Positions 1,175-64,000 of a stretch of 64,000 bases of DNA are shown here, one piece after another; within the stretch, counting starts at the first letter, position 1, and the number at the start of each line of letters is the position of its first letter. The stretch lies in sequence record NC_135729.1; one strand, written 5' to 3'. Origin of the DNA: a phage. Under the pieces are notes generated by a model. It was not told the origin of the DNA and searched no databases. It saw nothing but the letters and a program-made list of their open reading frames with translations. Position numbers and translations under genes: made by a program.

Positions 1175-3511
1175 TTACCAAAGGTCGGTAGACATGAAGT
1201 TGATATCTTTATTGTTCTCCCACTCAAGTTTTGCATCAAATATTTTGTTAAACTCACCCTCATCTATTGAAATCGTGATTTTCCCATCACTGATCTCTAA
1301 AGGTAGCATTTCCATAGTTCTTAATTGAGAAGCAAAACCAGGGCCACCCGGCAACGGAAGAGTCCCGCCAGGTAAGGTGTCCAAAGGATTAACAAACCCG
1401 TTACCTCCCGATATGATATCTTTGCGAATCATATCGCTGATAGTATCTAGCTGCTGATTTCTTTCACTTAGTGGGTTGTAACGGTCATTAAATAATTCCC
1501 CGGCGCTTAGTATTGTACCGATAATGCCCAGCTTGCCGAGCCGACCAACTTTGCCACCAGGTGTCTTGAGGCCACCCCCACCTTTTCCTGCCGGAGCTCC
1601 ACCACCAGATCCTTCTGTAGTAGCGGCACCCGCTGCTCCAGCTGCACCCCTTAGAGAGTTAAGGAATTTAAAGGTTTTTACAAGCATGGATGCCATGACA
1701 AAACCTTTTGTTAGGGCGTTGACTACCAGCATGATGGCAGCAGCAAACCCTGCCCATTTAGCATAGCTAAAGGTGTCATGAAGCTCTTCAGAATATTCCT
1801 TCGTCTTAGCTGTTATGAATCCCCATTTAATCCCCCATTCAAGGAAAAACATGCGGATCTTGACTATAGTGTTGTTTAGTTCACCAACTACCCAGTTAAG
1901 GCCTCTCACAAACCCGCTAACAAAATCACCAGAGGCATCCCACACAAATTGCAGAGTCTCACCAGTGCGGATTAGTGTATAATAGAACTCTGTTAGTTCG
2001 TCAGACCAACGGGTGAACAGTTTCTGACGAGTCAGTTCGATGAAGGTTTTCAGTCTGTTTTCTGCCAGCACGTTAGACTTCTGCATTCTTTCATAACCAG
2101 CTGCAGATGCCTCGTTCATGTACTTAGCCACATACTTCATGATCTTGGCTGTTTTAACCTCACCTTTCTTCATCATGTCCATGAACTGATCCATGGAGAG
2201 TTCAGAAAGACCAAAAGCCTCTTTGGTGGCCTTGATAAAAGGTTCGTATGCACCAGGCAATGCTTCAGCAAGTTGTTGCTTCAGTTCTTCGGACATTACT
2301 TGTCCCTTGCCAAGCATCTGTTGGATAGCCATAATACCGCGCTGGTATTTTACCTCATCGGCACCATAAGCAGCAGCATACTGTGAGTATGCAGAAAACA
2401 GCTCATGCACTTCCTGATTTGTCATCTGGTTTTTGGCGTTTACCGACATCTGGGCGTAACCTTGAAGACCAGATTTGAGATCAAAACCAAGACGCATAGC
2501 CTCTTGCTGGACAAACGCAACCTCACTGTTGGCTTTGTTTGGATCTCCAGTAACAGCAGTAAGAGCAGCACTTGCCCCCTCCATCATATGACCGGATCTG
2601 TTAACCGCAGCAAATCCAGAAAAAGCCGTATACGCAGCTGTTGCATTAATAACAGATCTACGTAAGTCTCTCATGGCATCGCCTAGTGTAAGCGTTTGGC
2701 TGGTGGCGCTTTTAAACCCAGACTGCAGCGCTGACAGGTGGGCGTTAAAGGTTGACTTCTTCATCTCCCCGCGAGCAAACCTGGACTCTAACTCTGAGTA
2801 TCCTGGCAAGCTTCCACGGAATCCGGCCCCATACTTGGCAGAAAGTCTTATCGCGGAGTTGTAGAGGTGGGTTCTCCTTGCCTCACGATCCGACATAAGC
2901 CTATTATCCATACCAGCTTTACTGTCTCTTCTTAGCTGTCTATGATAACGATTCATAGCGGCTGTCTGAGCTTTTACAAGGTTAGGGTCGGAAGCCACAC
3001 CCCCCATATTAGGGTTACCGGGGATATATTTGAAAGATTTGGCATTAGCCAAAACTCTTGCCTTAGGTGCCTTATAACCACCGTAAGACACTGGTGCAGA
3101 TTTGGCAGCCTTTTTGGCCTCTTTAGCTTGCTGCTGGTAGAACTTACGCATCCTAGCCATTTCTGGATTTTTAGCGGTAAGATTACCTACAGCTTGTTTA
3201 CGTCTCGCATTCTCCCTACGTTCTATTGCAGCCCTTACTGCAGCCTCTTTCTTGGCCTGTGCTACGCTCTCTCTGTGCAGTTTAGCATTTGCCTGAGATT
3301 GCTGTCTGGCAACCCTCTGCATTGTCTGCTGGGTTTTAACAGCTACCGCCTGCCATCTACTCATGGGGTTGGCTGAGTTAAAATCCTCGCCCAGTTTCCT
3401 GAACTCCCTCCCAATACTGCGAATTTTCTCGACAGCTTTTTTGTAGGAGGAGTTCTCTATCTCAAAGCCAATCTTGTTGACTGTTGTGGCAACTATTTTG
3501 TTTGTAGCCAT
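1175..3511 (-). CDS. tail tape measure protein
   Basis: 778 aa, long helical/coiled N-terminal part and Gly/Ala-rich segment; sits after sheath-tube-chaperone genes. Confidence 0.75.
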   Translation of the reverse strand: MATNKIVATTVNKIGFEIENSSYKKAVEKIRSIGREFRKLGEDFNSANPMSRWQAVAVKTQQTMQRVARQQSQANAKLHRESVAQAKKEAAVRAAIERRENARRKQAVGNLTAKNPEMARMRKFYQQQAKEAKKAAKSAPVSYGGYKAPKARVLANAKSFKYIPGNPNMGGVASDPNLVKAQTAAMNRYHRQLRRDSKAGMDNRLMSDREARRTHLYNSAIRLSAKYGAGFRGSLPGYSELESRFARGEMKKSTFNAHLSALQSGFKSATSQTLTLGDAMRDLRRSVINATAAYTAFSGFAAVNRSGHMMEGASAALTAVTGDPNKANSEVAFVQQEAMRLGFDLKSGLQGYAQMSVNAKNQMTNQEVHELFSAYSQYAAAYGADEVKYQRGIMAIQQMLGKGQVMSEELKQQLAEALPGAYEPFIKATKEAFGLSELSMDQFMDMMKKGEVKTAKIMKYVAKYMNEASAAGYERMQKSNVLAENRLKTFIELTRQKLFTRWSDELTEFYYTLIRTGETLQFVWDASGDFVSGFVRGLNWVVGELNNTIVKIRMFFLEWGIKWGFITAKTKEYSEELHDTFSYAKWAGFAAAIMLVVNALTKGFVMASMLVKTFKFLNSLRGAAGAAGAATTEGSGGGAPAGKGGGGLKTPGGKVGRLGKLGIIGTILSAGELFNDRYNPLSERNQQLDTISDMIRKDIISGGNGFVNPLDTLPGGTLPLPGGPGFASQLRTMEMLPLEISDGKITISIDEGEFNKIFDAKLEWENNKDINFMSTDLW

Positions 3512-3520
3512 GGTTTCCTC

Positions 3521-3560
3521 ATAATAAAAAGGGCCAGATCCCAGAAAAGGAATCCGGCCC
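3521..3560 (-). terminator. intrinsic terminator-like hairpin between chaperone and tape measure genes
   Basis: Imperfect GC hairpin followed by TTTTTATT on minus strand. Confidence 0.4.
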
Positions 3561-3565
3561 TTAGA

Positions 3566-3814
3566 TTATCCTCTCCTGCGCTTAGCTTTCGCAGCAGCTG
3601 CGGCAGCCTTCTGCTCCCGCTCCATTTCCCTGTTTTGGACGGTATCTAGGAATTCTTCGATATCAAGATACTCACAGAGCTTCAGGAAATACGCCATATC
3701 TGCAAGATTTAGCGATTCAAAATTTTCCCCTTTGAAATTCTTGAGCACCCTACACCAAAGAAAGTCGAACCAGTTGAGTGAACTGTTCTTGGCTGCCCAC
3801 TCACTGGCCCTCAC
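3566..3814 (-). CDS. tail assembly chaperone, second ORF (gpT-like, possible -1 frameshift extension)
   Basis: 82-aa ORF in -1 frame relative to the upstream chaperone ORF; position between tube and tape measure genes. Confidence 0.4.
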   Translation of the reverse strand: MRASEWAAKNSSLNWFDFLWCRVLKNFKGENFESLNLADMAYFLKLCEYLDIEEFLDTVQNREMEREQKAAAAAAKAKRRRG

Positions 3815-3825
3815 AACAACCTTGC

Positions 3826-4299
3826 TTATTCCTGCTCTTCCGGAGTCTGATCCAGGTTGTTCACCTGCTGAATCATACCCATCTGCTGTAACATCTCCAG
3901 AAGGCTTCCTAAACCGTCTTGTGTGAAAAAACAGCCGTAGTTAACCTCCAGAACCTTACCTGCCAGCTTAATCATCTCCAGCAGATGCCCTGCAAACACA
4001 ACATCTGGGTTAAGCTTATCCACACCATCTACGGTAATATCTTCGAACAAGATTTTAAATAACTCTTCAATAGAGCTATCATCAAGTTCTTGGAACAGGT
4101 AAGCCAGAGCAGTAGGAAGGACCTCTGCCATATTCTGACCACCAGAGATAATAGATCCACCGATAGCACCTAGCGGGACAGCCACAATCTTACCGATTTT
4201 AGGCATGTTTTTCATTGCTTTCATCGGTCCCCAGTGGGTGATCACAAAGTTGTGCCCTGCTAAATCAATCTCTGTTGTAGGTCTAAAGTTTATAGCCAT
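3826..4299 (-). CDS. tail assembly chaperone (gpG-like)
   Basis: 157-aa acidic ORF between tail tube and tape measure genes. Confidence 0.5.
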   Translation of the reverse strand: MAINFRPTTEIDLAGHNFVITHWGPMKAMKNMPKIGKIVAVPLGAIGGSIISGGQNMAEVLPTALAYLFQELDDSSIEELFKILFEDITVDGVDKLNPDVVFAGHLLEMIKLAGKVLEVNYGCFFTQDGLGSLLEMLQQMGMIQQVNNLDQTPEEQE

Positions 4300-4945: not shown

Positions 4946-6322
4946 TTATTCAGTCATTGCAACAGCATTGGTGGATTTAGAACCAACTTTGTCCAGAAGA
5001 ACGTTGATCCGGATACGAACGAAGTGCAGGGCGTTGTTATACACCAGTTCTACTTTCACACCTTCCAGAACACGAGCAGCCAACTGATTGGTTGGGATTT
5101 CTGCACGTTTAGGAACTGTGATGATCGGGTCGTAGAATACATTATTGTCTTCGTCGAAACCTGTCAGGATCGCACCATTCTTAATGCCAGTGTTGATTGG
5201 GTTGTTCATCAGGACAGACTTGATAACCGGAAGATCATCATCAGACATCTTCATGCTTAAACCCATGTTGGAGCGACGATGCATGTACCCAAACATAGAT
5301 TCTTCAGATCTGAACTTGATCCAGTGTGCAAAACGAATAGCGTCTGCATACTGACCTGAAGCACACTTACCTTCCCAGAAAGCGCCAACACCGTTAATCA
5401 TTCTGTAGAAGTTAACGTGGTTTTCCCAAATAGCCATACGCTGAGTTAAAGTCAGAGACGGTGCAATCACACCTGGCATCTGTTTTAAGTGCAAGCTGTC
5501 GCCGTAAGACGGATCGTTGGATGCCATAGCACCTATGATACCACCCTCCGGGAAGTCCTTATCTGCACGAGGATCGTACATGCCGACACTGTCATATTGT
5601 GCAGCTTTCAGTTTGGTGGCGATGTTATTATCTTTACCAGTCACATCTTCTGCAGTAGAGTAGACATGCAGCTTGTAGTTAGCCTGAGCCCACTTAGCAC
5701 ATGCTTCAATGTCGGTGTGGTCTTCATGGCACAGGAAGTACCAATTGTCACGCTCAGCATTGATCTTATCAACTACTGTAGAAGGTTTTTCAGCATTGGC
5801 GATATTTTTGATTGTATAGTTACCAGTATGGTAACCAACAGTACAGTCACCAGTGATGGTGATAACACCATCAGCAGCCTCTACAGTGATATCGTCCAAG
5901 TTATCATCTGCTTCGATTTTAGTCTTCATTGACTCTGCAATCTGAGTTGCAGCTGTTCCACCAGAGATAGGGACTATCAAAGAGGTATTGTAGCTACCTT
6001 TTGCAATAGTCATTACGACATCGGTATCAGCTGCGGCAGCAATACCTTTAAAATCTACAGTGGTCTTTTCTTTGGCCTGTCTGCCGATCATAACGTATTG
6101 TGGAGGGAATACACCACCAAAAGCTTTTGCTGCAAACTCATACGCTGCAGAGCCTTGTGCGAAACCATCTTCCACCATCTGATCCAGCTCTGCATATACG
6201 CGAGCTCGCTCAGTAAAGTTGTTGTGGATAGCGATGAACAGGGGAGTTTCGAAACCTACAGTGTCAATAGGCTGGGTTCCGAGGTTAACTGTAACATCTA
6301 CCACTTTATCTAAATATGGCAT
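4946..6322 (-). CDS. tail sheath protein
   Basis: 458-aa ORF preceding tube, chaperones and tape measure, the canonical myovirus gene order. Confidence 0.6.
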   Translation of the reverse strand: MPYLDKVVDVTVNLGTQPIDTVGFETPLFIAIHNNFTERARVYAELDQMVEDGFAQGSAAYEFAAKAFGGVFPPQYVMIGRQAKEKTTVDFKGIAAAADTDVVMTIAKGSYNTSLIVPISGGTAATQIAESMKTKIEADDNLDDITVEAADGVITITGDCTVGYHTGNYTIKNIANAEKPSTVVDKINAERDNWYFLCHEDHTDIEACAKWAQANYKLHVYSTAEDVTGKDNNIATKLKAAQYDSVGMYDPRADKDFPEGGIIGAMASNDPSYGDSLHLKQMPGVIAPSLTLTQRMAIWENHVNFYRMINGVGAFWEGKCASGQYADAIRFAHWIKFRSEESMFGYMHRRSNMGLSMKMSDDDLPVIKSVLMNNPINTGIKNGAILTGFDEDNNVFYDPIITVPKRAEIPTNQLAARVLEGVKVELVYNNALHFVRIRINVLLDKVGSKSTNAVAMTE

Positions 6323-16988: not shown

Positions 16989-17087
16989 AGGTGCTAGGCG
17001 GTGGAATCGAACCACCTATGTATTCAACGACTACCTCGTCTATTTTCAGGATTAAAAATCCTCGCCCTTGCCAAAGGGCTTACCTAG
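16989..17087 (-). tRNA. aberrant tRNA-like element (about 97 nt; anticodon unresolved)
   Basis: Canonical acceptor stem, D-arm (GCCC/GGGC) and T-arm (GGTGG-TTCGATT-CCACC), but about 30 nt extra between anticodon-like hairpin and T-arm. Confidence 0.35.
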
Positions 17088-17185
17088 CTCAATATGTTGA
17101 CCATGTTGCTAGTCGGCGATGACGACTGTAACATTTGATAATCCGGTTCTGCTTCCGGCTTTCGCTTAATTGCAAGGTCAACAAT

Positions 17186-56738: not shown

Positions 56739-57002
56739 ATGAACATCCTGATGTGGGTTATAGCAGTGGCGTTTGTTGCATGTTTTTGCTGCTGGGTTGC
56801 GGTGAGGATTTCTGTAGCTACCCTTCGGAAGTTGGGGTTCTCAGAATGGGATATTAATATCCTTTCTTTTCGCAATGAGACAATATCAGCCGCCCTGCTT
56901 TGTAAGAAATTCAAGTGGGAACCTTGTGAGGTCATGAACTATCTAAGAACGGGAGATATCCCTGAAAGATTTAAAAAAGTTCTTGACGGTAAGGATAAAT
57001 GA
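56739..57002 (+). CDS. hypothetical membrane-anchored protein
   Basis: N-terminal hydrophobic helix MNILMWVIAVAFVACFCCWVAV. Confidence 0.4.
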   Translation: MNILMWVIAVAFVACFCCWVAVRISVATLRKLGFSEWDINILSFRNETISAALLCKKFKWEPCEVMNYLRTGDIPERFKKVLDGKDK

Positions 57003-57030
57003 TAGTATAGTGACTAACAAGAGGTGAGGA

Positions 57031-57171
57031 ATGACCGATTTTACTGAAGCTTTAATGATGGCCTTGTCTGTTTTAGCGCTATCGGTGTGTTTTGGGGCGT
57101 TATTCACATCTCTGGTTAAAGTTTTACATACAGTATTATTACCCAAGGAGCGCAGTAATGACGAAGATTGA
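57031..57171 (+). CDS. small hydrophobic peptide (46 aa, below ORF-track cutoff)
   Basis: AAGAGGTGAGGA SD; single predicted transmembrane helix; overlaps next start. Confidence 0.3.
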   Translation: MTDFTEALMMALSVLALSVCFGALFTSLVKVLHTVLLPKERSNDED

Positions 57172-57409
57172 CTTGAATGCTGGCGACCATGTTGTTGTCA
57201 AATGCATCGGAGATTATCTTGGATTCACAATCGGCAATACTTACGAGGCGGTAGTGGCGAAGGTTTATCATGATAAAGTCCTCAGTCTTGTATTTGACTG
57301 TGATGATGACGGAGATGACCGTTACGTCTGTGAGGTGCTGGCTCGTGACGATAGTGAAGACCAGAAATTCCTGGTTATTGAACTGAACGGTATTTTTGTA
57401 GAACGTTAA
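57158..57409 (+). CDS. hypothetical protein
   Basis: Start at Met MTKIDLNAGD with AAGGAG SD. Confidence 0.4.
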   Translation: MTKIDLNAGDHVVVKCIGDYLGFTIGNTYEAVVAKVYHDKVLSLVFDCDDDGDDRYVCEVLARDDSEDQKFLVIELNGIFVER

Positions 57410-57437
57410 TTTAAAACAACATAAGGAGACTCTTACT

Positions 57438-57743
57438 ATGGCTAAATCTAAAGTTGAACTGTTCACCTCTCTTCCTTCTGACACTGCAGAGCGTGATCGC
57501 CTTCGCAAAACAATCGAAGAACTGGTGGAACTCCAACTTCAGATTAAAGATCTGAAAGATGCCATTAAGGATATCATTCTCGTTGAGAAGCAGGATCACC
57601 TGTATTCTCCTAAATTCATCAAATCTCTGGTTGCTACCGAGTTTGATATTCGCTATGAGGCTGAAAAGCGTCGAGCTAAAATCGAAGAAGAGGTTGAGCA
57701 CATGTCCGAGGCAGACATTCTGTTCAAACGCTCTGTAGAATAA
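57438..57743 (+). CDS. hypothetical coiled-coil protein
   Basis: 101-aa charged helical ORF. Confidence 0.4.
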   Translation: MAKSKVELFTSLPSDTAERDRLRKTIEELVELQLQIKDLKDAIKDIILVEKQDHLYSPKFIKSLVATEFDIRYEAEKRRAKIEEEVEHMSEADILFKRSVE

Positions 57744-57750
57744 TGACAAA

Positions 57751-57779
57751 GAGGGGGGGCTTGGGCCCCTCTTTTTACT
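57751..57779 (+). terminator. intrinsic terminator
   Basis: AGAGGGGGGGC-ttg-GGCCCCTCT followed by TTTTT. Confidence 0.6.
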
Positions 57780-57799
57780 ATCTATGGAGGAGATTTGAG

Positions 57800-58132
57800 A
57801 TGGGTATACCGATCACTGTAAAAGAATTGAATGAACGTGATGCAGGTGGTCTATGGCCTGCACGAAAAATACGCTGCATCCGTATGAAAGAGAACCTTGA
57901 GCATCTTGAGCAACAGAAACGGATTGAGGTTGGCGATATTTTCGAAGTATTTTATTCTGATCGCCGTAACTGGGAAACCATTCAACCTTCCGGTTTTGTT
58001 CTTGCTAAGCTTGACACTGGAGAAGCGATTGTTCCTGGGTTGGATATTGTCTTCGAAATTATACAGGAGTGGGATCCGGACAAGATTAGATACGAAGAGC
58101 TATTCGGTGAAGGTATTATCAAACCTGTGTGA
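57800..58132 (+). CDS. hypothetical protein
   Basis: Track ORF start lies in terminator; start moved to Met MGIPITV with GGAGGAG SD. Confidence 0.4.
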   Translation: MGIPITVKELNERDAGGLWPARKIRCIRMKENLEHLEQQKRIEVGDIFEVFYSDRRNWETIQPSGFVLAKLDTGEAIVPGLDIVFEIIQEWDPDKIRYEELFGEGIIKPV

Positions 58133-58140
58133 GGTGGATT

Positions 58141-58440
58141 ATGTCTACAAAGGCGGCTAAATACTCCTATATGCCATCAACCTCTGCAGAGGTAGACTTT
58201 AGTTTCGATGTGTTTCCACTGTTTGAGGTGGTTCTGGCATACCCAACAATACTATCTACTCCTGAATCACTTGTGCCTGTTAAGTTGCAGAACGCTATGC
58301 ATTCCATGCACTACAACAACAAATGTAGGCACAGATGGTGTCAGGACGAGGAAAAAGATTTGGATAGTTTGAGAGATTTTGACAGTCACCTTTTGACACC
58401 TTTCAGCTACTCCAACCTTGATAAGCCCTCGTGGGTATAG
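58141..58440 (+). CDS. hypothetical protein
   Basis: Start at Met MSTKAAK with GAGGTGG SD. Confidence 0.35.
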   Translation: MSTKAAKYSYMPSTSAEVDFSFDVFPLFEVVLAYPTILSTPESLVPVKLQNAMHSMHYNNKCRHRWCQDEEKDLDSLRDFDSHLLTPFSYSNLDKPSWV

Positions 58441-59133
58441 CAAAATATCAAATTTAAGACACCTAGGACGCTCTGTGGCGTCCTTTTCTTTATCTGGTGC
58501 ACGATTGCATACCTTGGGTAGTTAATCTCATTACAGAGCGTTTAAGAGCTCCCTACAAACAACTCCATATTTCGAGCGTAGCGAGAACGCACGTCCGTTT
58601 TGACCCAAATCACCATACGCTCGGATTTTAACCAAACCCTCGCGGCGTTTCTGTTGACACATTGCCGCTCCAGTGATAGTATCCACACATCGTTTGGAGA
58701 ATATGGAATACACAATGAAAACATTGTCAGAGGTTTTGGTGGTGATCCTGATGATCATTACGTCCATAGTGGCTGTTGCCGGAATACTCACGGGTGGAAC
58801 ATGATAAACACACATGCATCTGAAGAGACATCCAAAGGAGTGACTATATGTCCCTTGACTGAGCCAGTGCAAGAGGAAAACTTCGATTCTGAAGATTCTC
58901 CATCTTCGCTCCAGGTAGACCCTGAGGCTGATGACCTAACGTGGGAAGACATCGTAGATATCTGGTTCTCTATTATGCCTGAGCACGAAGAGTTCAGAGG
59001 TGGTAGACTATGAAGCACCGAGCCCACACAGGTTCCTCATGCTAAAGCATGGCCTGAAGAGGCAAACGTGCATAATTCCAGTGCATTGGAACATATAAAC
59101 CCTGTTCACATTCTCATTTCCAGAGGAGATTTC

Positions 59134-59349
59134 ATGAAGATAGAAATATTTGGTGGAGCTGACAACACTCGTGGCCTGATTTACCTTGAATTCGATGAAT
59201 CATACCTGCCAGAGGTGTTAAATATAGACTCTGTTGCTGAGGCTTTGGGAGTAAGTCCTAAAGATCTCTACTCTGGTGCTGAGATTGATGGTTGGGAGGA
59301 GACCATGAACATTGATTTCAGTGAAGTAGGTGATGAACCACTGGACTGA
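59134..59349 (+). CDS. hypothetical small acidic protein
   Basis: Start at Met MKIEIFGG with AGAGGAGA SD. Confidence 0.35.
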   Translation: MKIEIFGGADNTRGLIYLEFDESYLPEVLNIDSVAEALGVSPKDLYSGAEIDGWEETMNIDFSEVGDEPLD

Positions 59350-60192
59350 CACACAATTAGCTACCCGGCTAAAGTGCTGGGAGCACCTATAACACATCTT
59401 TCAACTAAATTTCCTACCACCACAATCACTTACCTCCCACACATGACTGTTTGCTTGTTTAGTGAGCAGTCATGCCTTGACATTCTTGCCTATCCTGATA
59501 AAATTAAGTTCTTCTCTTTTCTTTTACCGAGTAATTCGGGTTTTCTGTTCTCTTCGGTTTGAAGGGGTATAGAGATACACCTGAGTGAACAGGGTGAACA
59601 ACCGAACCATTAGCTATGGCATTAGCATGGCGAAGCGGACGGGTGACGAAAGAGGGGCCGGAGGACACCAGTCACTGCCATATGATATATGGGTGATAAC
59701 CTGAAGAGTCTGAATAAGTGTTTAAGTACCAGTCAGAGGAAAAGGTGAATGGTAGCCGAAGGGGGGAGGGGGGTTTCTTGTATCTTTAATTTGTATATTA
59801 TGTATACACTTGTAAACCAATCTAATCTGAATCTGTTTACCACGCAAAGCGGATAGAGACAAATATTGCCTATTAAACTTGAATTATTTATAGAAAATAC
59901 CACAACACCCCTTAAGTCTTTGATTTTACACACAAATCCTACAGATATTCAACCTCCATATTTAACATACTTGTAACATATTCCATACTCTACCTGTCTG
60001 ATCAACTCACCCAACTACATCCTCCATATTTCCCCTGTCTGTACTACCCCTGCCCCGCCTGGAGTCCCGTCATATCTGGCTTTCCAGCAAATATCCCACC
60101 CACAAATATCATTGCCTGAAGAGGGTTTCCTCCCATAATACATGCCTTACCTGAAGAGCGCTTCATATACCCCGTAAATTTTTTAATTGACA

Positions 60193-60225
60193 CCCTCCCC
60201 GCCGCCGGAGGGGGTTGGCTTTTCC
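60193..60225 (+). terminator. GC-rich hairpin, terminator-like
   Basis: CCCTCCCCGCCGCCGGAGGGGG followed by TTGGCTTTTCC. Confidence 0.35.
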
Positions 60226-60882
60226 CACACAGACCTGAAGAGCCAGCCAGAAATATCTGAACAGGTCCAGTTATACCACGATTTTGACCTGACCGACAGG
60301 AGTGCTGCCAGGCGGACGAAATGGGAATACTTCTCATTCTTATAACAATTCTCAAATATCGAGGCAGTGAGGCAAATTAATAGGTGAGGCCGTTCACATA
60401 GTGGCACAACATTTGCAATCTATTTTGTGTGGGGAATGAGAATACATATCATTGTGAGAACCATTATCATTACGGGCAATTTAACATAATACCCATTATG
60501 CGCACCACTGGCGATCCATACAGGGATTGATAACATGAGTTACTGTTTACACACATAACAATTATATTTCTTACTATTTGTGTGGGATATAGTTAGCAGC
60601 CGATAGATTAGATATTGACCTGTGGACTTCCAACAGTCTAGACGTCTAAGCGCCCACACAACAAGGCTTATACATACACAACTGAATGTAAACAGGGCCG
60701 CAAAAATGCTACCATACCAGCTTGTAAATTTTTCATACAGCACTTGACAAAGAGGAGAAAAACTTGTCTGACACTTTAGACACCTTTGACACACTGGGCA
60801 TACTAAACACTGGATATAATAACAATTGTTACTATTGCATGCCTCACTGTTCACGTATAGACTATTTGCTCAAAAATTATAA

Positions 60883-61171
60883 GCCATGCCATTCGTTTGC
60901 ATGATAACGATTAGCAAGTTAATAATCTTTCACTGGCTATGCCAGGTGACCTTTGGTCACCCCTTCGGGTGTTTCTATGACATAATATAAAAGCAGGGCA
61001 ACTATTAGAAGATCTATAGTTGCCTTGCTTGTTATGTCATGATTAACTAAATACAAGGCAACTATGATCTGATTAATAGTTTGCAGGCAAACTATCACGG
61101 GGGTGATGGTTACTGCTTTTATATTATGTCGCGACTCCGTCGCGCCATGCCATTCGTTTGCATAGTTGCCT
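60883..61171. repeat. repeat cluster: 20-bp direct repeats flanking nested inverted repeats and multiple GGCAACTAT/ATAGTTGCC 9-mers
   Basis: GCCATGCCATTCGTTTGCAT at about 60883 and 61144; palindromes GGTGACC-TTT-GGTCACC and GGCAACTAT...ATAGTTGCC; 9-mer in both orientations at least five times. Confidence 0.6.
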
Positions 61172-61779
61172 TATTGTTACAGGTAAAATAATCACATTAT
61201 TAATTATTTCTTATCTTTCTCTTAGTCATCTAATGATTCCAGTCAGTATAGTAATGTACAGTAGACATTAGACGACTAAAGATTTCTCTGTTTATGATAA
61301 CTCATCGTGATAATTTCGGACTGTTTACGAAAAATGTTGACACCTGAGCTGATTTATGTTATGCAGTTTACACGAATAATTATTTTATGCAGGTATTGAC
61401 TATTCCGTTATTCTGTGGTTGGAATAAATACTTTGCAGGCTATAGAATGGCGTGCGTACGTGAATTCTTAGATCTGGCGGCTATAGTTATACTCGATTTT
61501 TCGCGTAGGACACGCTTTCTATGTTGTGTAAGTGTATGACTTATAAAGATTTTTAGTTGTTGACAAGATATTGGAGATGTGCATCAGGTTAAAATTTGTG
61601 CAATAGCGGCATTACGTGCACTTTTGGGAGAGAAAACGGGTAAAAATGGCCCTGCTACCACACAGTGAAAGATTATGCAATAGTTATTTTATATGTATAT
61701 TTGTACAGTGTGTGGGATTAATGGCTAGTCAATTATTCCACTTGCCGGGTAGGGCCGTTTATGGTAGGAGAAGAGCAGA

Positions 61780-61806
61780 CAAAAAGAAAGGGGCCTTTAA
61801 GCCCCT
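61780..61806 (-). terminator. intrinsic terminator for leftward genes
   Basis: GGGGC-ttaaag-GCCCC followed by TTTCTTTTTG on minus strand. Confidence 0.5.
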
Positions 61807-61825
61807 TGATAATTCAGTTAAGAAA

Positions 61826-62245
61826 TTATAATGATTCGTATATTTCAAAAATCCGATTTGCCAGGTCGTTACGGTAGCGGAATTTTTCATCACGTTTGAT
61901 CATCAGATCTTTAAAGCCGTATTCTTTAAGCACTTCATTAACTTTATGGCGGCACACCTTCATATTGTCCTGAGCGTCACCAATAAACCTGTTGCTATGG
62001 TGCATGGCTTTAATTTCTTCTTCCAGGACCAGGGCAACTATGCGGACCGGATCAAGCTGATAGGCGGTAACATCAATGCGGCATTGTAAACGGCTTTTTA
62101 CGTCTGCCACCGGATATACTGCAACCTCTTCCCCGTCAACATTGACAATAATTAGTTTACCATCGATTTCGAATCCTTTCGCCGCCGGACCGTGACAAAA
62201 AGCGTTATCAAAGCTATATGCCGGATTATCAGATTTAATGTTCAT
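61826..62245 (-). CDS. hypothetical protein
   Basis: 139-aa ORF with AAGAGGT SD. Confidence 0.45.
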   Translation of the reverse strand: MNIKSDNPAYSFDNAFCHGPAAKGFEIDGKLIIVNVDGEEVAVYPVADVKSRLQCRIDVTAYQLDPVRIVALVLEEEIKAMHHSNRFIGDAQDNMKVCRHKVNEVLKEYGFKDLMIKRDEKFRYRNDLANRIFEIYESL

Positions 62246-62389
62246 GGTGTTTTTACCTCTTAGTTAATTTTCTTACAACTTCCCTTCAAAAAAGAATATA
62301 GCAAAACTGCCGATCCCTGTCAACAAGGGATAGCATAATTTTTATGTGATCAAGGGGCTTTATTGCCCCTGACCATGTAACTTGTTGTA

Positions 62390-62653
62390 TTATTTGTTGC
62401 TCATCCAGTTTTCCCAAGCTGCCTGATAATCTGCCTCACTACGGCGGATCTCTTCTTGTTCTTCAAGCCGGATCTCTTCTTCCAGGTACCCCAAGATGTC
62501 AGCCTTTTTAGTCTGGCGTAACATCCAATCGTCTTTTTTGCGAGTAAAGATCTTGTACGCTTTCTCGCAAACTTCTTTTTTGCTACCTTTTTGGACTTCA
62601 AGAATTCTGTAAGCCATGTACTGAACTAGTTTGAGCTGGTCAAGACGTTTCAT
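62390..62653 (-). CDS. hypothetical protein
   Basis: Start at internal Met MKRLDQL with AGAGGA SD. Confidence 0.4.
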   Translation of the reverse strand: MKRLDQLKLVQYMAYRILEVQKGSKKEVCEKAYKIFTRKKDDWMLRQTKKADILGYLEEEIRLEEQEEIRRSEADYQAAWENWMSNK

Positions 62654-62714
62654 GATGTTTTCCTCTTTATGTGGTCCTGGTTTAGTGGGCCTTTTGGCCC
62701 GTGTCATTATCTTA

Positions 62715-62987
62715 TTACTTACGGCGGCAGAATTCAAGCGTTTTTAATTGATAATCTTCCTCAGCCTGGAGTACAACCGCCTCGATCATTTCGTTGGCAT
62801 TGTTGAAGCCATACCCTTTAGCGAACTCGTCCGCACCACCTTCGTGATCATGTTCTGCGTTCATCGCTTCCACAAAATGGAATTCAAGATTATTGAGGTA
62901 AGGGCTTGATGTTCCGTCCTCTTTTTCGATGAGATCCCATATAGCATTAAAACGTGATTCGACCTCTTGATTAATCCAGCTTGACAT
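62715..62987 (-). CDS. hypothetical acidic protein
   Basis: Start at internal Met MSSWINQ with GAGGAA SD. Confidence 0.4.
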   Translation of the reverse strand: MSSWINQEVESRFNAIWDLIEKEDGTSSPYLNNLEFHFVEAMNAEHDHEGGADEFAKGYGFNNANEMIEAVVLQAEEDYQLKTLEFCRRK

Positions 62988-63202
62988 GATGTTTTCCTCT
63001 CTTCTGGTTGTTGTGTGGGGCAAACGTCTTGCCCCTTCAAGATAAATGTTACCCCACCCCATGGCAGATGTCAACGGTTTTTATAGTTCTTATATGACAG
63101 GCAGGCCCGGTGATTGTCTCCCCCCGTCGCCAGGTGCCTGCCGTGGAATAAGTATAACAAAAAACAGGACCATTGCAAGCCCTGTTTTGTAGTTTATAAA
63201 TA

Positions 63203-63394
63203 TTATATTTTTTCGCCTATGTAGTCCGGTCGGTTTTTCTCTGTCATGCGCTTTAGCAATTCTTGCATGTTACTTATGGCTTGTAGTGTATCCTCTTCCA
63301 GGCTTGAATCAACATAATCAGGATCGTCTATGACCTTTCTATGATTATGATAACGCAGTACCGCTAATACCTTTCTAACTTGTTCGATATTCAT
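63203..63394 (-). CDS. hypothetical protein
   Basis: 63-aa ORF. Confidence 0.3.
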   Translation of the reverse strand: MNIEQVRKVLAVLRYHNHRKVIDDPDYVDSSLEEDTLQAISNMQELLKRMTEKNRPDYIGEKI

Positions 63395-63543
63395 TTTTAT
63401 CGCTCTTTAAAACAAGGTGCCAACCGTTTCCAATAGATCACTGACTATCAGGACAACACTGATCAGCACATACCTAACCATAAGGGGAAAGAGCGCCAGT
63501 ATTGCTACCACAATCCCCAAGGTGATGGTTATCTTTCTCATGG

Positions 63544-63828
63544 TTAACGGTTTACGTAAGCTTTACCGTTTACGGTGATGGGTAGATCTTCCAGATCTGG
63601 ATCTTCCTTAAGGTCGCGAGCAAGCTCACCGCACCGGATACCCTCGAATCCGTAGTACTCTGTCGTGCCGTCCTGGAAAGTTTTAGCGGCAAGGCATAAG
63701 CGATAAGTAACCCCGATTTGATTGACGGCATGAATATCCGTTAGATTAACCTCTTTTGCCAGCTCTTTAGCCATTACAGGCGCATTAAGTCCAACAACCA
63801 GGGCAACCACTGCGATCATCTTTTTCAT
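63544..63828 (-). CDS. hypothetical secreted protein
   Basis: N-terminal signal-peptide-like MKKMIAVVALVVGLNAPVMA; AGAGGA SD. Confidence 0.45.
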   Translation of the reverse strand: MKKMIAVVALVVGLNAPVMAKELAKEVNLTDIHAVNQIGVTYRLCLAAKTFQDGTTEYYGFEGIRCGELARDLKEDPDLEDLPITVNGKAYVNR

Positions 63829-64000
63829 TGTGTCTATCCTCTTTCTGCTACGTTTAAGGCGGCGGTAACCGCCTGTTTATGCTTTGTTGGTTAATTTTCG
63901 GGTATCGGTATAAATTAAACTATGCTGTACGCTCAACTATAACAACGGTTTGGGGGATCTCACCTTCCACCACTAATAAGGCCTTTTTCTGCGTGATGGA

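Follow-up and report, generated by a model that had tools for sequence, protein, structure and literature searches.

Anatomy of a gene-free interval around the terminal repeat of an rV5-like Vequintavirus, a probable genome-terminus region

The DNA analysed here, called the window, is a stretch of 64,000 nucleotides (nt), or 64 kilobases (kb), of the phage sequence record NC_135729.1, and this report concerns its interval 59350-61825, a gene-free zone between two convergent gene blocks which holds a direct terminal repeat. In base composition and in repeats, this interval is the outlier of the window. It is bordered on the left by the last gene read rightward (59134-59349), with its stop at 59349, and on the right by the first leftward open reading frame (ORF; 61826-62245), which ends at 61826, and the borders that a sequence-only reading had given to the zone were right. 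Within the window, 59014-61825 is the largest gap without ORFs of at least 110 amino acids (aa). The interval matched 121 phage records at 91-97% identity, all of them rV5-like vequintaviruses, and a sensitive search carried out with it matched no genus outside Vequintavirus. Judging by these matches, the window belongs to an rV5-like Vequintavirus, a myovirus that infects Escherichia coli. Most of the 121 records annotate nothing in the interval. In the paper on the reference phage rV5 only a grey 'non-coding' box is drawn here, and the terminators expected between genes 163 and 164 were not found. The same paper describes a change of GC skew at 104425-105475, which falls within the matching stretch of rV5 (104014-106617), and the GC-skew switches of rV5 coincide with changes in the orientation of transcription.

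The direct terminal repeat, of 458 base pairs (bp), is located at 60311-60768. It was delimited by end-to-end alignment with the record of phage Gotham (MT682716), which carries a 459-bp repeat_region at each record end; both of them aligned base for base to 60311-60768 with abrupt boundaries, and the flanks of the repeat ran continuous with the right and left ends of Gotham. The left virion end starts with GGCGGACGAAATGGG and the right virion end stops at ...GAGAAAAACTTGTC; in the alignment with Gotham, the left end begins with GGCGGACG... and the right end stops at ...AAACTTGTC. At least nine records, deposited by several laboratories, share these boundaries exactly (query position 962 for the starts and 1419 for the ends): bov10K2, bov22_2, bov11CS3, and bov25_3 start at the left boundary, and Gotham, YN3, ECP2309, EcoIv14a_Aya, and Pr121LW end at the right one. 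For Gotham, the 459-bp terminal repeats and a fixed packaging start, the same in all virions, were determined from virion DNA. Korf et al. independently described 458-bp terminal redundancies in two vequintaviruses, and a relative from another genus, a Mydovirus, has a 514-bp repeat of T7 type.

Considering the alignment of the repeat and the shared record boundaries, the interval is very probably the genome-terminus or concatemer-junction region of a Vequintavirus which, like T7, packages unit-length DNA with short direct terminal repeats. The repeat would be present at both ends of the DNA in virions and once in concatemers, between a right-end flank (59350-60310) and a left-end flank (60769-61825). 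Permuted records hold one copy of it, and so does the window, whose source record is therefore permuted with respect to the virion. The two adjacent gene blocks read toward the ends, and neither reaches the repeat. The sequence-only reading had proposed three candidates for the zone: a packaging or genome-terminus region, a replication origin, and a locus of a long non-coding RNA. The first was strongly supported by the 458-bp repeat, which places both DNA ends at 60311-60768, and the other two are kept as readings only. The terminal repeat as such is already known for the genus from two papers and one annotated record; what is new here is that it is tied to the 'non-coding box' and that its fine anatomy, which is of a known kind, is dissected.

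Conservation was followed in a panel made of the window aligned with 17 relatives (18 genomes). The repeat measured 458-460 bp in all 18 genomes, without any sizeable indel, and the indels clustered just beyond both of its boundaries, with hot spots at 60191 and 60298 on the left side. The 12 nt before the left cut are fixed across the panel, as is the repeat itself, which has a GC content of 0.39 and no conserved ORF. These data bear on a different account, in which the DNA would be packaged by the headful from a pac site, the ends would be permuted, and the 458-bp repeat would be a convention of assembly or annotation. Two papers, based on default runs of PhageTerm, call vequintaviruses circularly permuted or headful, and many records have been deposited in arbitrary permutations. 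However, defined repeats of 458/459 bp were obtained by two laboratories together with a fixed packaging start, nine records have boundaries identical to the base, the length of the repeat is conserved while its flanks vary, and a tandem artefact in the record of phage CM1 begins exactly at the left boundary. Moreover, the bov records in their current versions start exactly at the repeat boundary, unlike what the PhageTerm-based statements say. We gave these statements less weight than the concordant evidence from the boundaries, and headful packaging is considered very improbable.

The record of Shigella phage CM1 (L003) deserves a separate description. At its positions 3031-4013 the 459-bp repeat is found twice in tandem, 64 nt apart (unit of 523 bp), and the left-end sequence GGCGGACG is exactly where the second of the two begins. 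This arrangement is probably an assembly artefact produced from end reads, which indirectly supports the left boundary.

The claim that the zone is free of genes was sustained by the comparison with the relatives. The ORFs of the interval showed no third-codon-position bias and most of them are broken in most of the 17 relatives, whereas the flanking genes, taken as positive controls, had a clear excess of changes at third positions (4, 1, and 43 changes at codon positions 1, 2, and 3 in one gene, and 13, 7, and 43; 12, 9, and 33; and 14, 9, and 40 in others). No protein encoded here is conserved across the 17 relatives, and the region is never absent as a whole; only 60903-61143 is missing, in phage FV3. 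Small protein genes overlooked by annotation could still be imagined, considering that small hypothetical ORFs are annotated here in several records and that a few short ORFs are intact in 14-17 of 17 genomes. But the annotated ORFs vary in position and strand from record to record, the codon-position bias seen in the flanking controls appears in none of the ORFs of the interval, and the intact ones sit in near-invariant DNA, without ribosome-binding sites and with featureless peptides, so that hidden genes are hardly credible. A scan for tRNA and tmRNA genes gave none within the interval. Scans against Rfam 15 (positions 57000-64000, and both conserved blocks described below with laxer filters) reached at best 13-27 bits, against thresholds of 39-107.

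As a near-neutral yardstick we took the third codon positions of five neighbouring genes, in which 38.9% of the columns were variable, the value for positions 1 and 2 being 6.2%. Along the interval, two conserved blocks were recognized, Block 1 (59437-59775), with 5.6% variable columns, and Block 2 (60975-61180), with 8.7%. The terminal repeat had 18%, the C-rich and AT-rich stretches 26-31% (26% for 59880-60192), the segment 59776-59879 45%, and the arrays to the right of the repeat (60769-60882) 78%. The interval is thus non-coding yet under constraint, and its reading as junk DNA is unlikely. Outside the panel, IMG/VR gave 2 loci and a metagenome collection 6, which are too few for covariation statistics, and two divergent contigs among them were very informative.

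The right-end flank opens, directly after the last rightward gene, with a C-rich, G-poor tract on the + strand (59350-59436), which by its composition is a candidate rut-like (Rho utilization) site for the rightward gene block. The 78-nt window at 59384, with 26 C and 4 G, ranks fourth in the 64 kb (+ strand), and the terminator scan of 59350-59436 detected no intrinsic terminator. Next comes a hairpin read from the sequence, CATGACTG-N17-CAGTCATG (59442-59474), located within a run that is invariant in the 18 genomes (59437-59473) and just upstream of the best promoter site of the region. This predicted strong sigma-70 promoter (59477-59504, + strand) has the form TTGACA-16-TAAAAT with an extended -10 TG, agrees with the consensus at 11 of 12 positions in addition to the TG, and is directed toward the right end, with a predicted transcription start at ~59511. 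In L030, the contig that diverges most, neither hexamer has changed and the TG is kept, while ~7 bases of the spacer are changed and its length goes from 16 to 18 nt. This is the pattern expected of a selected promoter, so the sequences compared indicate that the 59477 promoter is under selection. As for the several TTGACA hexamers that the sequence-only reading had remarked on, there are 6 copies, all on the + strand, against ~2-3 expected; this modest excess stands, but only the copies at 59477 and 61337 are conserved and promoter-like.

Downstream of the predicted start, Block 1 consists of ~265 nt of ultra-conserved, purine-rich DNA (59511-59775, + strand). Its constraint is about that of codon positions 1 and 2 of the neighbouring genes, and in the surrounding 7 kb no invariant run is longer than those found in it. 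It is ~99% identical in metagenomic contigs that are only 84-88% identical overall, and the conservation stops abruptly after ~59775. The 3′ edge of the block is marked by a G6AG6 tract on the non-template strand (59761-59773), which is followed by TTTCTTGTATCTTTAATTT, a T-rich run (tract and run, 59761-59792, + strand). Located ~250 nt downstream of the predicted start, it has the GmAGn plus T-tract form of CSB II (the mitochondrial conserved sequence block II). It is the only run of the type G≥5-N-G≥5 in the 64 kb and it is retained as G5-6AG5-7 in 24 of 24 genomes or contigs. A G-quadruplex is predicted for it, with a local minimum free energy in ViennaRNA of -26.4 kcal/mol with quadruplex folding and of -9.2 kcal/mol without it. 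We also observed in Block 1 four GGTGA(A/C/T) motifs on the + strand (59593, 59642, 59692, and 59744), spaced by 49-52 nt in units that are otherwise dissimilar.

Block 1 may have a role in packaging-coupled transcription, as a replication primer, or as a non-coding RNA. Regarding the last of these, Block 1, and possibly also 61372-61810, would encode a free-standing RNA with targets in trans, of the host or of the phage, and without relation to the ends. The promoter conserved with a divergent spacer, the sharp boundaries of conservation, the lack of coding signal, and the second conserved promoter at 61337 are consistent with such an RNA, and the variable sites are mostly in predicted loops or are wobble-compatible transitions. 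However, the folding energy of Block 1 was no better than that of shuffled sequences (z = -1.3), no double-sided compensatory change was found in it, Rfam 15 gave no family match for it, and it has no canonical terminator hairpin. The uniform constraint on every base is also unusual for a structured RNA. For Blocks 1 and 2 alike, the generic signature of structured RNA, that is, folding better than shuffles together with compensatory changes, was not obtained. Taking both sides into account, a free-standing RNA seems possible but somewhat unlikely.

The replication origin, which may coexist with the terminus, is also a matter of Block 1. It is known for RNA II of ColE1 that a transcript which remains attached to the template primes replication. 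In a similar scheme, the host RNA polymerase would start at 59477, the purine-rich transcript would stall and stay attached at G6AG6 as an R-loop or hybrid G-quadruplex, and its 3′ end would prime the phage family-A DNA polymerase, as in CSB II or ColE1 RNA II. What speaks for it is the selected promoter, the heavily constrained ~265 transcribed nt that end exactly at the G-tract and T-run, and the retention, in all 24 genomes, of a tract that is unique in the window and predicted to form a quadruplex. In mitochondria the GmAGn plus T-tract of CSB II terminates transcription and forms the replication primer, and the element also works with T7 RNA polymerase. According to the rV5 paper, rV5 has genes for a primase-helicase like gp4 of T7 and for a polymerase of family A, and both periodic repeats and the AT-richest DNA of the window are nearby. 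Nevertheless, the relation to CSB II is one of resemblance. With the mitochondrial polymerase, termination hardly rose at tracts of 8-11 G, and most relatives have 11. On a linear monomer, a rightward fork would run off the end after ~1 kb; the GC-skew switches, as said, coincide with changes in transcription orientation; and no initiator gene was identified. A transcription-primed origin in Block 1 is therefore regarded as unlikely. By analogy, the proposal can be made narrower, 59477-59792 being an origin beside a genome end and the bacterial-virus counterpart of the mitochondrial light-strand promoter (LSP) and CSB II, served by the host RNA polymerase and by a replisome of T7/mitochondrial type; in this form it is less likely still. 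An origin in Block 1 might double as a transcription-coupled trigger for the maturation of the ends.

Between Block 1 and the terminal repeat lies a C/A-rich, strand-asymmetric segment (59880-60192, + strand), which by composition is a candidate Rho-loading site for the 59477 transcript. Its asymmetry, already noticed in the sequence-only reading, is real and extreme: the most negative GC skew of the window, -0.54, belongs to 59801-60200 (value at 59901), and the top 78-nt window of the 64 kb for C minus G (+ strand) starts at 59982, with 35 C and 6 G. The tracts at 59982 and 59384, first and fourth in that ranking, both have the C-rich, G-poor composition of Rho-type sites. CCTCCATATTT is present twice in the segment. 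The repeated 9-mers that had been pointed out in this zone were also confirmed, as CCTGAAGAG has 7 copies in the window against 0.53 expected, and four of them are at 59700-60242, all on the + strand. When their conservation in the relatives was checked, the copies at 59700, 60115, 60150, and 60234 were kept in every panel genome; the last one is 77 nt before the repeat. The terminator scan found, ~100 nt before the repeat, a GC-rich hairpin with a short T-run (60193-60222, + strand), terminator- or pause-like, and the indel hot spot at 60191 is directly upstream of it. An FtsK-gamma system with FtsK-orienting polar sequences (KOPS) was considered, given an ORF that some records annotate as 'DNA translocase FtsK' and the presence of GGGGAGGG, and was rejected. 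Pfam gave no domain in that ORF. The KOPS-like motifs GGGNAGGG, supposed to be oriented to a target, have four copies in the region without coherent polarity.

The left-end flank starts, at the very boundary of the repeat, with hypervariable arrays of short direct repeats (60769-60882, + strand), first NGACA(YAAT) and then RTTYAC. Each genome has 2-7 decamers of NGACA type followed by 1-7 RTTYAC units. The spacing of NGACA is 9-11 bp in 33 of 49 intervals, and that of RTTYAC is 15-16 bp in 37 of 44, with doubles at 30-32 bp. These periodic arrays and the one-strand copies of CCTGAAGAG would be the likeliest protein-binding (packaging) signals, for the terminase or for an accessory protein.

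After the arrays, a 20-nt direct repeat, GCCATGCCATTCGTTTGCAT, designated family D4 in the repeat comparison, has a first copy at 60883-60902 and a second one at 61144-61163 (both + strand). Between the two copies there is an optional hairpin element of 52 nt (60926-60978, + strand), formed by GGTGACC-TTT-GGTCACC overlapping CACCC-CTTC-GGGTG plus T's. A similarity search against host and plasmid sequences returned only this element and a weak 40-nt match. The element matched the intergenic DNA of pE275a_13, a phage-like plasmid of 13.7 kb which carries capsid and baseplate genes (L025, 3001-3052; E = 2e-8), and the plasmid copy has a compensatory change, C:G to T:A, in the closing pair. Four phages of the panel lack the element, and the contig L030 has a second, inverted copy (5257-5298). 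It behaves like a small movable terminator cassette.

The palindromic module of Block 2 (60979-61130) has perfect inverted arms of 18 nt around three hairpins that have GGCAACTAT as half-site (inverted repeats I1, I5, and I11), and GGCAACTAT itself has four exact copies at 60997-61170. The nested palindromes described by the sequence-only reading are therefore real, and 60940-61185 folds with z = -6.8 (+ strand) and -8.7 (- strand) with respect to shuffles. As a T-rich arm follows each outer hairpin, Block 2 reads as two convergent intrinsic terminators. The terminator scan gave a terminator-like site on the + strand at 61090-61111, and the records of Murica and Alma annotate one on the - strand in the block. 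No covariation was found in Block 2, its few variable sites being in loops or uncompensated, and in 6 of 17 genomes a change at one stem position has no compensating partner. The module is present, as a single copy, in 117 of the 121 matching records, with 96-99% identity in 107 of the 117. In FV3 (L009), the only panel genome without it, there is one copy of GCCATGCCATTCGTTTGCAT and no DNA between copies (60903-61143). A mobile element was considered, given the 20-nt flanking repeats and the absence in FV3, and it was rejected, as the module is single-copy, is in no other genus, and is present in those 117 records; a deletion between the 20-nt repeats in FV3 is a simpler reading. On the other hand, an insert of ~33 nt, TTAACATCCTCGAGACGAAGGCTATGCCTGAGT, splits Block 2 after 61031 in genomes of rV5 type, among them rV5 (L008) and L016, which make up 10 of the 117 module-bearing records. 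A sequence that resembles it is inserted elsewhere in L019, after 60906, which suggests another mini insertion element.

The rest of the flank contains the AT-richest 300 nt of the window (61151-61450, GC content of 0.317) and, within them, a second predicted sigma-70-like promoter read from the sequence, TTGACA-17-TATGCA with an extended -10 TGt (61337-61365, + strand), whose hexamers and TG fall within invariant stretches. The leftward gene block ends with an intrinsic terminator, an 8-bp stem followed by TCTTTTTGTC, which the terminator scan placed at 61788-61807 (- strand). It is bidirectional, and in the records of Gotham, Murica, and Alma the corresponding position is likewise given as a terminator.

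Putting these elements together, it is possible to propose how a concatemer junction of this kind would operate. C-rich tracts of Rho type and intrinsic terminators would keep the convergent gene blocks off the repeat, each from its own side: the former, as Rho-loading tracts, would stop rightward transcription, and leftward transcription would end at the intrinsic terminator of 61788-61807 and at the double terminator of the palindrome (60979-61130). RNA started at the 59477 promoter would head for the junction, like that from phiOR in T7, and would couple transcription to end maturation or prime replication. The terminase would recognize signals around the repeat and cut at 60310/60311 and 60768/60769, and DNA synthesis would duplicate the repeat.

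Besides the PhageTerm-based statements, several points weigh against this interpretation. The terminus was assigned to the phage of the window by homology, from records in which others had set the ends. The arrays are hypervariable, as their proportion of variable columns indicates, their assignment as terminase site is that of a candidate, and the phage of the window itself has the poorest ones (2 TGACA and 1 GTTCAC). Block 2 is dispensable in FV3, and the dependence on Rho is deduced from base composition. Finally, since the genes on both sides point to the ends, an entry of DNA driven by transcription in the style of T7 does not fit. Even so, the genome-terminus reading is, as stated, the one we hold to be very probable.

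Some further observations concern the borders of the interval, the records that match it, and the rest of the window. In 58440-59013, the long ORF at 58600-59013 has no codon-position bias (28, 23, and 31 changes), and the gene that relatives have annotated there covers no more of it than the final 213 nt; therefore, gene density drops already ~700 nt before the start of the interval. At the other border, the 139-aa gene at 61826-62245 (- strand) is missing in ~35% of the panel genomes, which makes it an accessory gene bordering the terminus region; no domain was found in it with Pfam. The homologue of a flanking regulator in Seunavirus, Mydovirus, and TH18 is inside a long co-directional block without a gap, and the arrangement is not traceable outside the genus by means of it. 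The sequence CCCACACA has 16 copies in the window against ~2 expected, inside genes and in the terminus region (for example at 132, 735, 1939, 19683, 20551, 24062, 47637, 55215, and 63012), seven of them in or near the interval, at 59023-61716. As a functional site it was rejected: it has no extended consensus and most of its copies are not conserved in relatives, so it is treated as compositional or unexplained.

Among the 121 records, nineteen that carry the label 'UNVERIFIED Campylobacter phage' (MG0656xx, e.g., MG065655, MG065646, and MG065690) are classified as Vequintavirus and differ hardly at all from coliphages; their host label is doubtful. The closest match to the window over the full length, with 97.5%, is one of these nineteen (C2). 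In PLSDB, the 'plasmid' CP057073.1, of 137,565 bp, a vequintavirus size, obtained from an E. coli culture from pooled cattle faeces, matched 100% of 59350-61825 at 89.9% identity, and it probably represents the genome of a phage entered as a plasmid (contamination or carrier state). Far from the interval, ARAGORN detected a 99-nt tRNA-like gene at 16990-17088 (- strand), with a four-base anticodon (atcc), among six clustered tRNA genes of the ordinary kind; this tRNA may contain an intron or be unusual in some other way.

With the terminus placed in this interval, the start and the end of the DNA of this phage would be located, which bears on genome orientation and annotation, most of the 121 records being arbitrarily permuted. 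The ~2 kb of non-coding DNA around the short terminal repeat appear as discrete modules under very different evolutionary regimes: two blocks constrained like protein-coding sequence, an intermediate repeat, and hypervariable periodic arrays. Among them are candidates that can be put to the test as packaging signal, as stops of transcription, and perhaps as an origin in a widespread phage genus, of use in the engineering or rebooting of therapeutic-candidate phages and in the design of packaging or transduction vectors.

By comparison with known systems, the C-rich, G-poor tracts directly downstream of two rightward transcription units resemble Rho-dependent terminators, and the sites at 61788-61807 (- strand) and 61090-61111 (+ strand) have the canonical hairpin-plus-T of intrinsic ones. 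Block 2 differs from an ordinary bidirectional terminator in being more elaborate, with two convergent terminators whose T-tracts form a perfect 18-nt inverted repeat. Binding arrays of iteron or small-terminase type are found in lambda cosB and in SPP1 pac. The arrays described here share with iteron origins and small-terminase arrays the tandem short repeats, the helical or 1.5-turn spacing, and the position beside a cleavage site and near AT-rich DNA, but their units are shorter (~10 and ~15 bp), degenerate, and vary from 1 to 7 copies between close relatives. With LSP and CSB II the right-end flank has in common a promoter-driven transcript that would meet a non-template GmAGn tract and then a T-rich run, a tract length polymorphic between isolates, and a replisome of T7/mitochondrial type; the differences are that E. 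coli RNA polymerase would make the transcript and that the tract has 11-13 G, instead of 12-15 G. The relation is best taken as resemblance and not as membership.

The closest likeness that we can draw is with T7 and T3. It is known that both the concatemer junction and a pac signal are needed for packaging in T7, and that pausing of RNA polymerase at the junction helps to initiate maturation. Examining T7 for comparison, we found that its 160-bp repeat is followed, from nt 175, by ~12 CCTAAAG units with a period of 13 bp, an array that begins 15 nt after the terminal repeat, and that a shorter array precedes the right copy of the repeat. The promoter phiOR is 549 bp upstream of that right copy, and the 59477 promoter of the window is 834 bp upstream of its repeat. 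The two systems differ in the size of the repeat (458 bp here, 160 bp in T7) and of the flanks (~1 kb each here, a few hundred bp in T7), in the motifs of the arrays (NGACA and RTTYAC here, CCTAAAG in T7), which are unrelated, and in the promoter, of host sigma-70 type here and of phage-polymerase type in T7; besides, this is a 137-kb myovirus without an inward-reading early operon like that of T7. What they share is a short direct terminal repeat, at ends that are probably fixed here as well, a non-coding, gene-free junction, a periodic array of short repeats right after the left-end copy, further repeats before the right-end copy, and a promoter located a few hundred bp upstream of the right copy and reading toward it.

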